Shown here one piece after another: positions 11,774-53,400 of a stretch of DNA of 64,000 bases. Each line of letters starts with the position of its first letter. Position 1 is the stretch's first letter. This DNA is from Malacoraja senta (taxonomy: Eukaryota): the NCBI GenBank assembly GCA_038087875.1, contig CM075992.1, positions 5,024,001 to 5,088,000 on the forward strand, given 5' to 3'. The notes beneath the pieces were generated by a model that did not search any database, had not been told where the DNA came from, and saw only the letters and a list, made by a program, of their open reading frames with translations. The translations under genes and the position numbers were made by a program.

Positions 11774-11911
11774 CTTCTTCTTGCGTATGGCGTGCACAGC
11801 CTAAAGTTGTAGGACAACTTGTTCTATTTGATCTTACTTGATTGTGCACGCCGGGTTGATTGCATTCGTCGATGCAGGGCGGACCACTTGAAGGTTGCCA
11901 TCTCCCACCCC
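11774..11911 (-). mobile_element. 138-bp ribozyme-headed non-autonomous retroposon (full length)
   Basis: 12-bp TSD AAAGGTTTAAAT (11762-11773 and 11912-11923); tail GCCATACGCAAGAAGAAG; no tRNA A/B boxes. Confidence 0.85.
11858..11911 (-). ncRNA. Minimal HDV/CPEB3-like self-cleaving ribozyme fold (variant copy)
   Basis: GGGGTGG GA GATGGCA ACC TTCAAGT GGT CCGCCCT GCATCGA C GAA TGCAATC: P1 with G1-U wobble, P3 ACC/GGT, P2 with one mismatch, J4/2 CGAA. Confidence 0.7.
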
Positions 11912-26382: not shown

Positions 26383-27393
26383 ATAGGACTACACTGGACT
26401 TTATCTTGCACTAAATGTTACTCCCTTTCTCCTGTATCTGTACACTGTGGGCGGCTCGATTGTAATCATGTATAATCTTTCCCCTGACTGGATAGCACCC
26501 AACAAAAATGCTCTCCACTGCACCTCGGTATGTGACAATAAACTAAACCGATCTAAACTATACATCAGAACCGTTTATCCAGGGAGGAAATGTCAAGGAG
26601 ATTAGTTTAACTTGGCACCATGTTCAGCACGGACATTGTGGGCTGAAGGGCCTGTTCCTGTGCCTGTACGATTGTGTGGTCTATGTATCTAAAATTATGA
26701 GAGGCATAGATAGGGTAGAGAGTCAGATCCTTTATTCCCAGGATGTAAATGTCAAAGACTAAAGGGAAAAACCCTCCCAAGTTTCCCTTTGACTCATTCT
26801 TCCAAAGTTAAACCCTGTCCGCAGTTGTTGATAGACAATAGACAATAGGATATACCACGAACATCAAGAAATTTCCACCCTGAGCCATTTAAAGACATTT
26901 TATCAGTTTGAAACCCATTTGTCTTTTAACCTAAGGTTACATCACCACTTGCATTTATATATATTTTTTCTGATTAGTGTGCATTTAGCTTTAGGGTGGC
27001 AAGGTGGTGCAGCGGTAGAGTTGCTGCCTTTAATATGGGTGATGTTTCGGGTCGAGACCCTTCTTGAGACTAGTTACGGATAAGGGAAACGAGAGATATA
27101 GATGATGGTGTCGAGAGGTCAGGACTGCTCTCTAGGGTAAACTCACAGTAGATTTTAATATACATTGGTGTATAGATTTTTAGACTTATTCATATTTGTT
27201 CAGTTCAGTTCAGTAAAATGGGTTCAGTTTTATTAGGCCGGCACGGTGGCGCAGCGGTAGAGTTGCTGCCTTGCAGCGCCAGAGACACGGGTTCCATCCT
27301 GACTACGGGTGCTGTTTTGTCAGAACAACAACAAATGATCAGACCCATCCATATTGTGGAGATAATTATATAGGTTTTAAACATCTTGGAGCT

Positions 27394-27465
27394 GAATAAG
27401 ATCAAATAGGACAAGTTATCCGACATCTTTAGGCTGTGAATACCATACTCAAGAAGAAGAAGAAG
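27394..27465 (+). mobile_element. 5'-truncated copy of the ribozyme-headed retroposon
   Basis: 11-bp TSD ATCTTGGAGCT (27383-27393 and 27466-27476); AAGATCAAATAGGACAAGTT...CTTTAGGCTGTG...CCATACTC(AAG)5. Confidence 0.8.
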
Positions 27466-28118
27466 ATCTTGGAGCTCGGTCAATATAGATAAACAATTTA
27501 ATTTTAGCTCCAATGATTGATATATCATCTTTATCCTCAATGACCTCTGACCAGGAACACTATCTGTAGTATGACACCAGTGATCAATTTTAATTGACAC
27601 AGTTTTTTCAACAGAACGTTCTTCCTGAGACTTTAACTAAAGAGGCCAGTGCTATATAGCAACAACGGACTGAAATTGCTTCCACTTTTGCATGTCTAAC
27701 ATGCCTAACAACCATTAACAATTGTCCTTAGCTACTGGCATTCTCTTGCATCCTTTTACAAAGATTAAAAATATCACAATCAAAAGCTTGTAGTCAGATA
27801 TATGTCATCAGATAATAATTATGCAAACAGGAATATAAGGCATGGTATTGATTGTGTAAAAGCAACTAGCAAGAACGTATGCCAAGAAAGCAAAATAAGT
27901 GAATGTTGGAAGCAGACTCTAGAATCATAGAATCGTGCAGTACAAACCTGCACGTCTCTGGGATGTGGGAGGCAACTGGAGCACCCGGAGGAAACCCACG
28001 AGGTTAGAGGGAGAATGTGCAAACTTCACACAGATAGCACCTGTGGTCAGAATTGAACCTGGGTCTCTGGAGCTGTGAGGCAGCAGCTCCACCAGCTATG
28101 CTACTGTGAATCAAAACT

Positions 28119-28311
28119 ACACACAAAATGCTGGAGTAAATCAGCGGGACAGGCAGCATCTCTGGAGAGAAGGAGTGGGTGACGTTTCGGGTCGAGACCC
28201 TTTTTCAGACACGAAACGTCACCCATTCCTTCCCTCCAGAGATGCTGTCCGTCCTGCTGAGTTAGTCCAGCATTCTTCAAATGTAAACCAGCATCTGCAG
28301 TTCCTTCCTAC
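28119..28311. mobile_element. Penelope-like inverted terminal-repeat insertion
   Basis: Palindromic arms flanked by direct repeat TGAATCAAAACT (28107-28118 and 28317-28328). Confidence 0.7.
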
Positions 28312-29230
28312 ACTGTTGAATCAAAACTGTTGCCCTTCCACAGCCTGTGGCCAGAAACATCCAACGTGAATTGATCCCTCTATCGAGACTCAACCAAGTC
28401 TCTGATCTGACTTAAAAATTCAGCATTAAAATTAGTAATTGGCTCAGGAAATCCTGAGCAGTGATGTGCGAAATAGTGGGTCAAATAGGGTCGCAGGATC
28501 TGTCTGACATTTTCATTATACGCTTGTTCCCAGATGGGGAGTTGTCTCTGTTAAAGTGAAATGAACAGAAGGTGCTAATGAACAAATCTGCCAAGCATCC
28601 CGTCATAAAATTTGAAGCTTGCAATTCCTGCTCGTTAGCTAGGCAGATGACCAGTCCTGGTGCCCAACACACAGATGTAATGACAAGGAAGGCATACACG
28701 CACATCCACTTTCCTCGAAGTTTAAAGAGATTCTGCATCTAGATACAGTGGACAGTCAAACCCTTTTCACCAGGGTGGGCAAGTCAAGGGCTAGAGGGCT
28801 TAGCTTGAAGGCCGTATTCGGAGTTTTGCATGCAGTTCTGGTTGCCCCATTGCAGGGAGAATGTGCACCCTTTAGAGAAGGTGCCAGAGGTCTACCAAGA
28901 TGCTGCCTGGATTAGAGCATATTAGCTCAGGGGCGGCACAGTGGCAGAGCGGTAGAGTTAGCTAGATTAATTAAGCATCATGGTTGGCACAAACACGATG
29001 GGCTGAAAGGCCTGTTTCTGTGCTGGACTGTTCTTTGTAGACGAAGAGGTGCCAGTGTATATACTGTATAATGCTGTTGGCTGCTGTACACCAAATTAGT
29101 GGTGCTGGCAAGGTCCAGCAGTACGTTACGTCGCAAAATAGACCCCACTGGTTCTATATATTCGGTGTTTCCCAGAAGTAGTTTTTGTTGAGGTGAACTA
29201 CTTGTTAATCCTTCATGCAGCTGACCAACA

Positions 29231-29284
29231 GGGGTGGGAGATTGCAACCTTCACGTGGTCCACCCTGTTTCGACTAATGCAATC
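29231..29284 (+). ncRNA. Minimal HDV/CPEB3-like self-cleaving ribozyme fold (intact copy)
   Basis: P1 GGGGTGG/CCACCCT (G1-U wobble), P2 GATTGCA/TGCAATC, P3 ACC/GGT, L3 TTCACGT, then GT, TTCGA in place of P4, J4/2 C-TAA. Confidence 0.82.
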
Positions 29285-29479
29285 AACCTGACGTGCACAA
29301 ACAAATAGATCAAATAGAACAAGTTGACCAACAACTTTAGGCTGTGCATTCTGTATTCATGCCTATTATATTCTGTTGTGCTGAAGCAAAGCAAGAATTT
29401 CATTGTCCTATCTGGGACACATGACAATAAACTCTCTTGACTTGACTTGACTTGACATGCCATATGCAAGAAGAAGAAG
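29231..29479 (+). mobile_element. Ribozyme-headed non-autonomous retroposon, interrupted by a Rex1-type tail fragment (about 29349-29456)
   Basis: Flanking direct repeat (AG)CTGACCAAC at 29219-29229 and 29478-29488; tail GCCATATGCAAGAAGAAGAAG; colinear with 11774-11911. Confidence 0.85.
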
Positions 29480-29513
29480 CTGACCAACGAATGACAAAGG
29501 TGGTATCCTAAAG

Positions 29514-33945: not shown

Positions 33946-34173
33946 GGTAGACACAAATGGTAGAAACTCATCGGGTGAGGCAGCATCTATGGAGTGAGCG
34001 AAGGAATAGGTGACGTTTCGGGTCGAGACCCTTCTTCAGTCTCGTCACCTATTCAGTCTCGACCCGAAACGTCACCTCTTCCCTCGCTCCATGGATGCTG
34101 CCTCACCCGCTGAGTTTCTCCAGCATTTTTGTGTACCTTCGATATTTCCTGCATCTGCAGTTCTTTCTTAAAC
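33946..34173. mobile_element. Penelope-like inverted terminal-repeat insertion
   Basis: Palindromic arms; perfect 16-bp flanking direct repeat ATTAGGATAGTCACTA (33930-33945 and 34174-34189). Confidence 0.75.
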
Positions 34174-35609: not shown

Positions 35610-35829
35610 AGATAGCCACAAAATGCTGGAGTAACTCAGTGGGACAGGCAGCGTCTCTGGAGAGAAGGAATGGGTGACGTTTCGGGTCGACACTGAGTCT
35701 GAAGAAGGGTCTTGACCCGAGCCGTCACCCATTCCTTCTCTCGAAAGATGCTGCCTGTCCCGCTGAGTTACTCCAACACTTTGTGGCTATCTTCGATTTA
35801 AACCAGCATCTGCAGTTCTTTCCTACACA
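35610..35829. mobile_element. Penelope-like inverted terminal-repeat pair
   Basis: About 80-bp arms forming a hairpin, hammerhead-like core at 35699-35726. Confidence 0.7.
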
Positions 35830-42969: not shown

Positions 42970-43190
42970 TGTAAGAGAGAACTGCAGCTGCTGGTTTAAA
43001 TCAAAGGTAGACACAAAATGCTGGAGTATCTAAGCGGGTGAGGTAGCATCTCTGGAGAGAAGGAATGGGCGACGTTTCGGATCTTCAATCTGAAGAAGGG
43101 TCTCGACCCGAAACGTCACCCATTCCTTCTCTCCAGAGATGCAGCCTGTCCCGCTGAGTTACTCCAGCTTTTTGTGTCTTTCTTTGATTT
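42970..43190. mobile_element. Penelope-like inverted terminal-repeat pair with intact hammerhead-like core (43090-43117)
   Basis: CTGAAGA-A-GGGTCTCGACCC-GAAA-CG-TC. Confidence 0.7.
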
Positions 43191-50487: not shown

Positions 50488-53400
50488 TCAGTTTAGTTTA
50501 TTGTCACGTGTACCGAGGTACAGTGAAATGCTCTTTTTTACACGCTGTCCAGTCAGCGGAAAGACAACACATGATTACAATCTAGCCATTTACAGTGTGT
50601 AGATACATGATAAGGGACTAACGCAGTGGAAAGGAAGGACATTAGCTTGGAGGATGTGGAATCGGTATGGGTAGAGCTACGAAACACTAAGGGGCAGAAA
50701 ACGCTGGTGGGTGTTGTGTACAGGCCACCTAGCAGTAGTAGTGAAGTTGGGGATGGCATCAAACAGGAAATTAGAAATGCGTGCAACAAAGGCAAAACAG
50801 TTATAATGGGTGACTTCAATCTACATATAGATTGGGTGAATCAAATTGGCAGGGGTGCTGAGGAAGAGGATTTCTTGGAATGTACGAGGGATAGTTATCT
50901 AAACCAACATGTAGAGGAACCAACGAGAGAGCAGGCTATTCTAGACTGGGTATTGAGTAATGAGGAAGGGTTAGTTAGCAGACTTGTTGTGCGTGCCCCG
51001 TTGGGCAAGAGTGATCATAATATGGTTGAGTTCTTCATTAGGATGGAGAGTGACATTGTTAATTCAGAAACAACGGTTCTGAACTTAAAGAAAGGTAACT
51101 TTGAGGGTATGAGACGTGAATTGGCCAAGATTGACTGGCAATTAGTTCTAAAAGGGTTGACGGTGGATATGTAATGGAAGGCATTTAAAGACTGCATGGA
51201 TGAACTACAAAAATTGTTCATCCCAGTTTGGCAAAAGAATAAATCAGGGAAGGTAGTGCATCCGTGGATAACAAGGGAAATCAGGGATAGTATCAAAGCA
51301 AAAGATGATGCGTACAAATTAGCCAGAAAAAGCAGCATACCAGAGGACTGGGAGAAATTCAGAGACCTGCAGAGGAGGACAAAGGGCTTAATTAGGAAAG
51401 GGGAAATAGATTATGAAAGGAAACTGGCAGGGAACATAAAAACTGACTGCAAACGTTTTTATAGATATGTGAAGAGAAAGAGATTAGTTAAAACAAATGT
51501 AGGTCCCTTGCAGTCAGAAACAGGTGAATTGATCATGGGGAACAAGGTTATGGAGGACCAATTGAATAACTACTTTGGTTCCGTCTTCACTAAGGAAGAC
51601 ATAAATAATCTGCCGGAAATAGCAGGGGGCCGCGGGTCAAAGGAGATGGAGGAACTGAGTGAAATCCAGGTTAGTCGGGAAGTGGTGTTGGGTAAATTGA
51701 ATGGATTAAAGGCCGATAAATCACCAGGGCCAGATAGGCTGCATCCCAGAGTACTTAAGGAAGTAGCTCCAGAAATAGTGGATGCATTGGTGATAATTTT
51801 TCAAAACTCTTTAGATTCTGGAGTAGTTCCTGAGGATTGGAGTGTAGCAAACGTAACCCCACTTTTTAAGAAGGGAGGGAGAGAGAAAACGGGGAATTAC
51901 AGACCAGTTAGTCTAACATCGGTAGTGGGGAAACTGCTAGAGTCAGTTATTAAAGATGGGATAGCAGCACATTTGGAAAGTGGTGAAATCATTGGACAAA
52001 GTCAGCATGGATTTACGAAAGGTAAATCGTGTCTGACGAATCTTATAGAATTTTTCGAGGATGTAACTAGTAGAGTGGATAGGGGAGAACCAGTGGATGT
52101 GTTGTATCTGGACTTTCAGAAGGCGACAAGGTACCACATAAGAGATTAGGATACAAACTTAAATCACACGGTATTGGGGGTTCAGTATTGATGTGGATAG
52201 AGAACTGGCTGGCAAACAGGAAGCAAAGAGTAGGAGTAAACGGGTCCTTTTCACAATGGCAGGCAGTGACTAGTGGGGTACCGCAAGGCTCAGTGCTGGG
52301 ACCCCAGCTATTTACAATTTATATTAATGATCTGGACGAGGGAATTGAAAGCAACATCTCCAAGTTTGCGGATGACACTAAGCTGGGGGCCAGTGTTAGC
52401 TGTGAGGAGGATGCTAGGAGACTGCAAGGTGACTTGGATAGGCTGGGTGAGTGGGCAAATATTTGGCAGATGCAGTATAATGTGGATAAATGTGAGGTTA
52501 TCCACTTTGGTGCAAAAACGGGAAGGCAGACTATTATCTAAATGGTGGCCGATTAGGAAATGGGAGATGCAGCGAGACCTGGGTGTCATGTACAACCAGT
52601 CATTGAAAGTAGGCATGCAGGTGCAGCAGGCAGTGAAGAAAGCGAATGGTATGTTGGCCTTCATAGCAAGAGGATTTGAGTATAGGAGCAGGGAGGTTCT
52701 ACTGCAGTTGTACAGGGTCTTGGTGAGACCCACACCTGGAGTATTGCGTACAGTTTTGGTCTCCAAATCTGAGGAAGGACATTATAGCCATAGAGGGAGT
52801 GCAGAGAAGGTTCACCAGACTGATTCCTGGGATGTCAGGACTTTCATATGAAGAAAGACTGGATAGACTTGGCTTATACTCGCTAGAATTTAGAGATTGA
52901 GGAGGGGATCTTATAGAAAACGTACAAAATTCTTATGGGATTGGACAGGCTAGATGCAGGAAGATTGTTCCCGATGTTGGGGAAGTCCAGGACAAGGGGT
53001 CACAGCTTAAGGATAAGGGGGAAATCCTTTAAGACCGAGATGAGGAAAAACTTTTTCACACAGAGAGTGGTGAATCTCTGGAACTCTCTGCCACAGAGGG
53101 TAGTTGAGGCCAGTTCATTGGCTATATTTAAGAGGGAGTTAGATGTGGCCCTTGTGGCTAAAGGGATCAGAGGGTATGGAGAGATGGCAGGTACGGGATA
53201 CTGAGTTGGATGATCAGCCATGATCATATTGAATGGCGGTGCAGGCTCGAAGGGCCGAATGGCCTACTCCTGCACCTATTTTCTATGTATCTATGTATCT
53301 ATGTTTAGTGCAAGGTAAAAGCCAGTAAAATCCGATCAAGGATAGTCCGAAGGTCACCAAAGAGGTAGATAGTGGTTCAGCACTGCTCTCTAGTTGTGGT

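Follow-up and report, generated by a model that had tools for sequence, protein, structure and literature searches.

The window, that is, the whole 64-kb stretch of DNA analysed here, holds copies of a dispersed, young retroposon family whose members are ~138 bp long and have no coding capacity. With a probability of roughly 0.7, we read the element as a short non-autonomous non-LTR retroposon of the SIDE/RIME type, in which the 5′ end of a LINE, an HDV-like ribozyme trimmed of its P4 stem, is joined to a LINE-type 3′ end, probably from the Vingi/Ingi group; we infer that its RNA releases itself.

The sequence points to an element that releases itself from the transcripts of its host. A copy would be transcribed within a host RNA polymerase II transcript, and its 54-nt double pseudoknot would cut 5′ of G1, C44 acting as the catalytic base; the RNA set free would have no cap, and its 5′ end would lie hidden within P1. 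A LINE endonuclease-reverse transcriptase acting in trans would bind the 3′ hairpin and terminal motif and then nick the target, and reverse transcription would prime on the (AAG)n repeat, aided by base pairing with the target. Because the RNA is so short, most copies would be complete and hence would each carry their own release device. Our guess for the RNA 3′ end is that priming occurs at the repeat inside a longer transcript.

Window copies and the ribozyme-like head

An earlier note on this DNA described two copies of a ~140-bp element with target site duplications (TSDs) of 10-12 bp. Both copies are present, and there is a third, 5′-truncated copy. The features are as follows.

29231..29284, + strand: copy 1, ribozyme head; putative P4-less HDV-like fold with P1, J1/2, P2, P3, L3, a one-pair P1.1 and a 5-nt P4 replacement; CUAA subfamily
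29285..29348, + strand: copy 1, 3′ body; stem-loop domain; a short open frame stops at TAG, 24 nt ahead of the repeat tail
29349..29456, + strand: foreign insert in copy 1; 3′ end of an unrelated repeat with a (CTTGA)n tail; a later insertion, outside the element proper
29457..29477, + strand: copy 1, terminal motif and (AAG)n tail
29219..29229, + strand: copy 1, left TSD, 11 bp
29478..29488, + strand: copy 1, right TSD
11774..11911, − strand: copy 2, full length; 12-bp TSD; decayed core (G.A in P2, C24A in L3)
27395..27465, + strand: copy 3, 5′-truncated and diverged; 87.5% to copy 2; 11-bp TSD, 27383-27393 / 27466-27476

Copy 1 spans 249 bp because ~108 bp of another repeat interrupts its tail. 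Its TSD is 11 bp when exact, and 12 bp if one A/G mismatch just 5′ of G1 is allowed. The short open frame of its body (29285-29340; seen also in L036, L040 and L044) ends in Q-L-stop 24 nt before the repeat tail and looks like a LINE C-terminus, albeit a very short one. The window as a whole is rich in tRNA-headed SINEs and LINE 3′ ends, contains 200 N bases, and carries broken CR1-type endonuclease-reverse transcriptase frames at 50614-52851; in its repeats it looks like cartilaginous fish DNA. Copies of a common repeat lie head to head at 28157-28243, 33971-34111, 35649-35753 and 43025-43162, and the long hairpins that they make give weak, spurious Rfam microRNA matches.

The first 54 nt of the element fit a P4-less HDV-like ribozyme. 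In copy 1 the nested double pseudoknot proposed for 29231-29284 was borne out in every stem: P1 pairs positions 1-7 with 30-36, including G1.U36, P2 forms seven of seven pairs and P3 three of three. The single strands are J1/2 GA, L3 UUCACGU, GU, UUCGA and J4/2 CUAA, which places the putative catalytic C44 at 29274. A published descriptor of HDV-like ribozymes (PMC6326823) specifies G1.Y, the L3 letters U, C and G, and J4/2 CRRA. The head has the 7-bp P1 opening with G1.Y, the 3-bp P3 and a P2 that crosses P1, and its L3 has the conserved U, C and G of the reverse wobble, at which point copy 2 fails. P1.1 consists of a single C-G pair, like that of the CPEB3 model, rather than two, and a 5-nt link takes the place of the P4 stem. 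The J4/2 rule, a catalytic C followed by RRA, is followed by the major form of the element (CGAA), and the CUAA subfamily departs from it. The likeness to antigenomic HDV that had been seen in CUAA thus holds for that subfamily only, whereas the likeness of L3 and the following GU to the CPEB3 ribozyme stands: the L3 is the same and GU follows P1.

Copy 2 had been taken as an example of tolerated change. The U-G/U-A and CGAA/CUAA alternatives are indeed real subfamily differences, but the P1 change is one-sided and not compensatory, and the G.A in P2 and C24A in L3 had not been listed. Since copy 2 fails the HDV descriptor and copy 1 passes it, copy 2 is a decayed copy and gives no evidence of tolerated change.

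Model searches gave faint signals. An Rfam scan (4,227 families) of a 101-base piece of one copy, L005, returned only two families, CPEB3 ribozyme at 15 bits (E 0.078) and HDV-F. prausnitzii at 14.4 bits (E 0.85); both matches end on the 54-nt head, but lie far below cut-off (15 vs 35 and 14.4 vs 44 bits). The ribozyme did not appear when Rfam was run over the whole window (E up to 5), and none of the three matches of RF02682 over the genome was above cut-off. The HDV descriptor, composed with prior knowledge of the element, found 58 sites in the window and all examined loci, and none in 30 Markov-resampled windows. Nested folding of the 54-mer recovered P1 and P3, and that of the full element P2; the minimum-free-energy z-scores of the head were not significant, as expected of a pseudoknot. 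An alternative 2-bp hairpin could pair C44 with G37, at a cost of 1.7 kcal/mol in a nested calculation. Together, a putative HDV/CPEB3-type fold without P4 is supported for the head.

Family size, insertion ends and the tail

The 1.94-Gb assembly containing the window was searched with patterns allowing up to two mismatches. A head 31-mer gave 7,952 matches and a tail 30-mer 8,517, both lower bounds on copy number; the reversed control of each gave none. Among 18 full-length copies picked by their tails, 31 of 1,854 non-CpG, non-diagnostic sites diverged (1.7%), as did 23 of 244 CpG sites, and the low non-CpG figure indicates that the ribozyme-headed family is young. Sequencing runs under seven organism labels contained 77-100% of the words of the family, four of the labels not being marked as a possible assembly source; these runs are contigs with guessed organism labels, some RNA-labelled.

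Subfamilies differ in the head at G8A, G32A, U38C/U39A and G45U, and at many sites in the body. The non-CpG head variants common to at least three of 107 copies were these same changes (G8A, G32A, U38C, U39A, G45U) and one G10A row (three copies); all except G10A are unpaired or pair-preserving. C44 is kept in 99 of 103 copies, and J4/2 is CUAA in 16 of the 103. Several internally deleted copies of 85-115 bp (a second copy at L026, and L075, L084 and L110) start at G1 between TSD-like flanks, some without parts of the ribozyme; their deletions often lie between short AATCAA-like repeats.

Full-length copies numbered 95 of 106 unique copies, a proportion that overstates completeness because most had been selected for their similarity or for having the head. 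Starting from the tail, the head was present in 24 of the 26 first-listed exact matches (18 of 20 fetched, plus six previously picked by head), and the other two had no head within 240 bp. A TSD could be anchored in 75 of the 95 full-length copies and not in 20 (median 11 bp, range 7-14). Its edge fell at G1 in 36 of the 75, at +1 or +2, positions that are ambiguous within the G run, in 22, and elsewhere in 17. Contigs of all four sequencing runs clip at G1 or G1-1 (the largest loose-end rows among those listed), and the agreement of only 0.34-0.43 upstream of the clip indicates unrelated flanks. The 5′ end at G1, claimed earlier for two copies and proposed for a genome-wide check, is thereby supported for the family.

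Target sites show preferences as well. Position −1 was T in 51 of 95 copies against a background of 31% (p 6e-6), −11 was A in 56 of 102 flanks and −13 was T in 47 of 102; the A at −11 would fit pairing with the element tail. Copying of a capped RNA is expected to leave an extra 5′ G. In this family G stood at −1 in 12 of 95 copies, against a background of 21%, and only two of 15 extra-letter cases were G.

These ends bear on the possibility, which we consider unlikely, that the head is mainly an internal promoter like Pr77 of L1Tc, with transcription starting at G1 and the ribozyme slow or vestigial after the loss of P4. A fixed start site would give the same uniform 5′ ends, although the lack of an excess of extra 5′ G leans weakly against a capped RNA. 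The single P1.1 pair and the missing P4 would suit a vestigial ribozyme, but P4-less ribozymes are known to be active (PMC10879173, PMC6326823), and all subfamilies examined keep the catalytic core while the 3′ body has more shared changes. Pr77 itself is both promoter and ribozyme (PMC3383444, PMC4035085).

Searches for an RNA polymerase III-type head, all insensitive to degenerate boxes, agreed with the earlier statement that the copies have no tRNA, 5S or 7SL boxes. ARAGORN found no tRNA gene in any of four loci, an A/B-box pattern matched two window sites, neither inside a copy, and the Rfam scan of the L005 piece gave no tRNA-, 5S- or 7SL-type match. The earlier note spoke of a ‘ribozyme SINE’; Kojima classes such elements as non-autonomous LINEs, not SINEs (PMC5786205, PMC4494074).

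At the other end, the 3′ hairpin was significant in the major subfamily (z-score −3.7) and not significant in two single copies of other subfamilies (−1.2 and +0.3). In the element, in the L018 family described below and in the alligator element SINE2-1_AMi, the 3′ end is made up of a hairpin, the motif A(C/U)ACG and a repeat rich in purines.

Sister families, covariation and the partner LINE

The same genome contains other ribozyme-headed families. A search of it with the CPEB3 model gave 60 matches, 39 of them above cut-off (best 64.2 bits), and the same search of 14 control genomes gave none above cut-off. A further family, L018, was found with the HDV descriptor, next to a copy of the element.

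L144:47-119 (G000:C21:8958106-8958178), − strand: L144 head, top CPEB3-model match (64.2 bits), with a full P4
L018:57-526 (G000:C4:1231231-1231700), − strand: second short ribozyme-headed retroposon, ~145 bp without a 315-bp insert

The L144 family, known from its first 119 nt, has ~20 copies at 92-96% identity, most starting at G1, and is a candidate for the 5′ end of a Vingi LINE. ATG ATG lies ~30 nt 3′ of its ribozyme head. At G000:C8:937568-937815 and C4:35489621-35489819, the first ribozyme half of L144-type heads is tandemly repeated at 26-bp steps. Among the 39 CPEB3-model matches above cut-off, those of 59-65 nt (32-44 bits) may be another P4-less family. The L018-type element has a two-pair P1.1, a long P4, its own hairpin tail and a 9-bp TSD; its family gave 491 head and 317 tail matches, with several head-tail pairs 107-118 bp apart and best copies at 97-100% identity.

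Covariation in P1-P3, which had been proposed as a check across copies, was absent inside the family (no compensatory stem changes in 107 copies or in sequencing-run contigs) and appeared between families. The three in-genome head types (the element, L144 and L018) align without gaps over 38 nt, with pairing in 55 of 55 cells; the alignment comprises five rows, three of them from this family, so that three families are independent. Five of 11 pairs change on both sides and none is broken, whereas slid controls pair at 40-55%; the structure used for this count was chosen from those same sequences. P2 pairs in all three head types, with one mismatch in L144. The covariation argues for selection on the fold, and cleavage itself is a prediction.

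The proposed link to Ingi/Vingi is supported by published Vingi 5′ ends, which share the core, spacing and register of the head (see below). No autonomous LINE with the element's head or tail was found in six exclusion-pattern genome searches, each of which requires near-exact anchors and would overlook a partner in roughly one case of two. The 118 head-without-body matches (30 inspected among 100 listed) were indels, truncations and nested insertions with no recurring long element, and the six matches to a head-without-link pattern were likewise indels, truncations or nested insertions. Tail-based patterns gave 68, 57, 182 (100 listed) and 23 matches, upstream of which, segmental duplicates aside, no foreign sequence recurred. 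Copy 3 was ruled out as a LINE 3′ end; its 27 matches were decayed element tails. In viral contigs the element tail pattern (two matches) and the L144 core (13 matches), and in genome contigs the tail pattern (one match), gave only chance hits without ribozyme context.

LINEs were also approached through their proteins, with generic domain profiles rather than a Vingi protein, and the matches were to other LINE families. PF14529 gave as best matches a Nimb-like family and CR1; PF00078, for which the best 150 of ~160,000 candidates were taken, was uninformative on reverse transcriptases near L144-type heads. RTE families were reached through DUF6451 and the C-terminus of L116 (5 and 14 stretches, respectively), with no tail match. 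In all, neither head nor tail was shared by 19 RTE-like 3′ stretches and one Nimb-like element; some in-genome RTE and Nimb-like elements end in (AAG)n, but their tails otherwise differ. Two LINEs deserve description.

L116:49-3490, − strand: RTE-like LINE, full-length, 1,057-aa APE-RT, from a metagenome contig
L117 (G000:C5:54190900-54195900): young Nimb-like LINE; many intact 1,277-aa frames, RNase H domain, hairpin and (AAG)n tail

L116, RTE-like and not a Vingi, came to light because its 5′ UTR was the sole metagenome match to the 21-nt core of the head. It has the same P3-L3-P1 core, which Rfam does not detect, and suggests another origin, namely that the element works in the same way but is a two-part derivative of RTE, or depends on an RTE protein for its mobility. 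Bipartite elements arise from RTE more often than from any other source (PMC5786205), and one in-genome RTE family ends in (AAG)n. The J1/2 of L116 is long, however, against the 2-nt J1/2 of the element and of CPEB3 and Vingi heads, and none of 14 RTE 3′ stretches resembled the element tail better than shuffles did (in the best case 32 of 200 shuffles scored as high). We hold an RTE source to be improbable.

L117 belongs to a clade that we take to be Nimb-like from its ORF1 and APE-RT-RNase H organisation. Its many intact frames and its hairpin and (AAG)n ending raise the prospect of a hybrid like the R2/R1 SIDEs, with a Vingi-type ribozyme head and a tail read by this LINE. Such hybrids have been published (PMC3414825), but the match between the L117 and element tails is not significant (28 of 200 shuffles as high), and a hybrid seems the least probable of the alternatives, with very little weight. 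A Vingi/Ingi-group derivative remains our preferred reading.

Vingi, CPEB3 and known systems

The supplement to PMC5786205 gives 5′ ends of Vingi-2_Gav, Vingi-4_Crp and Vingi-1_BF, an internal stretch of Vingi-2_SPur, and the Vingi-derived part of SINE2-1_AMi. Compared by eye, the gharial, crocodile and lancelet Vingi 5′ ends and the internal sea-urchin Vingi stretch have the core and spacing of the element. Vingi-2_Gav, also by eye, agrees with the Rfam CPEB3 consensus in 38 of the 40 positions of ribozyme 2-41 and in all of the last 14, and shares the 2-nt J1/2 and the spacing with the element and L144. The middle of SINE2-1_AMi is nearly a CPEB3 ribozyme, with changes in L3 and P3 that would fit a loss of cleavage behind a tRNA head.

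These likenesses suggest that the human CPEB3 ribozyme may have come from such a mobile element. We consider evenly poised a broader proposal, in which a CPEB3-type ribozyme would be the usual 5′ end of Vingi LINEs and of their short derivatives; this genome would have at least three such families, in one of which a P4-less 54-nt head alone would make a promoterless 138-bp element mobile to 8,000 copies; and the mammalian CPEB3 ribozyme would be the domesticated 5′ end of one Vingi-type insertion, not an orphan or a capture from hepatitis delta virus. According to Bendixsen et al., the CPEB3 ribozyme is not known outside mammals, and their study had no outgroup. The main text of PMC5786205 lacks the word CPEB3 and does not place Vingi among its ribozyme-bearing clades. 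We found no CPEB3-Vingi link in the literature matched, where one paper has both words without connecting them; Repbase, Dfam or earlier papers may record it. With L144 (64 bits) and Vingi-2_Gav as candidate outgroups, the origin of the CPEB3 ribozyme becomes testable.

Compared directly, the element and the mammalian CPEB3 ribozyme (RF00622) share a gapless register over positions 1-38, the same L3, the one-pair P1.1, GU after P1 and the CGAA junction. They differ in the letters of P1, P2 and P3, in the absence of P4 from the element and in its score (15 bits vs the cut-off of 35); the element is multicopy and mobile, whereas the CPEB3 ribozyme is single and intronic.

P4 is also replaced by a short link in minimal HDV-like and theta ribozymes, nearly 99% of which lie in Caudoviricetes phages, beside tRNAs, whereas that of the element heads a retroposon; the eukaryotes in that survey were human, mouse and protists (PMC10879173). 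No theta-type site beside a phage tRNA was encountered here: the flanks of the element are unrelated target sites, and its core was absent from viral contigs. If our reading is right, P4-less HDV-like ribozymes, reported almost only from gut phages, would extend at high copy to a vertebrate-type genome.

A ribozyme head on a LINE tail is a published design (PMC3414825, PMC4035085), and its novelty had been overstated. The R2 SIDEs and R2/R1 hybrid SIDEs of Drosophila, like the element, have a 5′ HDV-like ribozyme, a LINE 3′ end and no ORF; these SIDEs are copied by TPRT, with release from a co-transcript proposed as it is here. They are rare and lie in 28S rDNA, whereas the element is dispersed in ~8,000 copies and lacks P4 (PMC3414825). 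Trypanosomatid RIME, NARTc and SIDER are short, dispersed, ribozyme-headed derivatives of the L1Tc/ingi clade (PMC4035085, PMC3383444), and their TSDs of 11-12 nt, as in L1Tc (PMC3383444), are close to the median of 11 bp found here. Their heads are 77 nt long, keep P4 and also act as promoters, whereas the element has a 54-nt head, an (AAG)n tail and an animal host (PMC4035085, PMC3383444).

Bipartite RTE and Vingi derivatives have been published for vertebrates (PMC5786205, PMC4494074, PMC3747384); Vingi-1_EE derivatives, Bov-A, RTESINE and RTE-N2_Lch resemble the element in combining LINE 5′ and 3′ ends (PMC5786205, PMC4494074), and some non-autonomous metazoan SINEs use HDV-like ribozymes (PMC6765202). 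We found no report of this family, or, among the matches listed, of an HDV-like ribozyme in cartilaginous fish; Repbase, Dfam or earlier papers may record either. Kojima asked why only RTE, Ingi, Vingi and R2 yield bipartite derivatives (PMC5786205), and an answer may be that a ribozyme head makes a promoter unnecessary. Vingi UTRs are used in RNA-only gene-insertion platforms (PMC13708176), where a self-cleaving 5′ module would matter, and copies on the sense strand of introns, in their thousands, could cleave host pre-mRNA.

If it releases itself as proposed, the element (ribozyme 54 nt, element 138 nt) would have the most compact design of any self-releasing retroposon seen in an animal. 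Three points are surprising and can be put to the test: the minimal head, the recurrence of ribozyme heads across three families, and the CPEB3-Vingi link. The kind of element is already known from flies and trypanosomes; what is new is a P4-less head at high copy in a vertebrate-type genome, together with the link between CPEB3 and Vingi.
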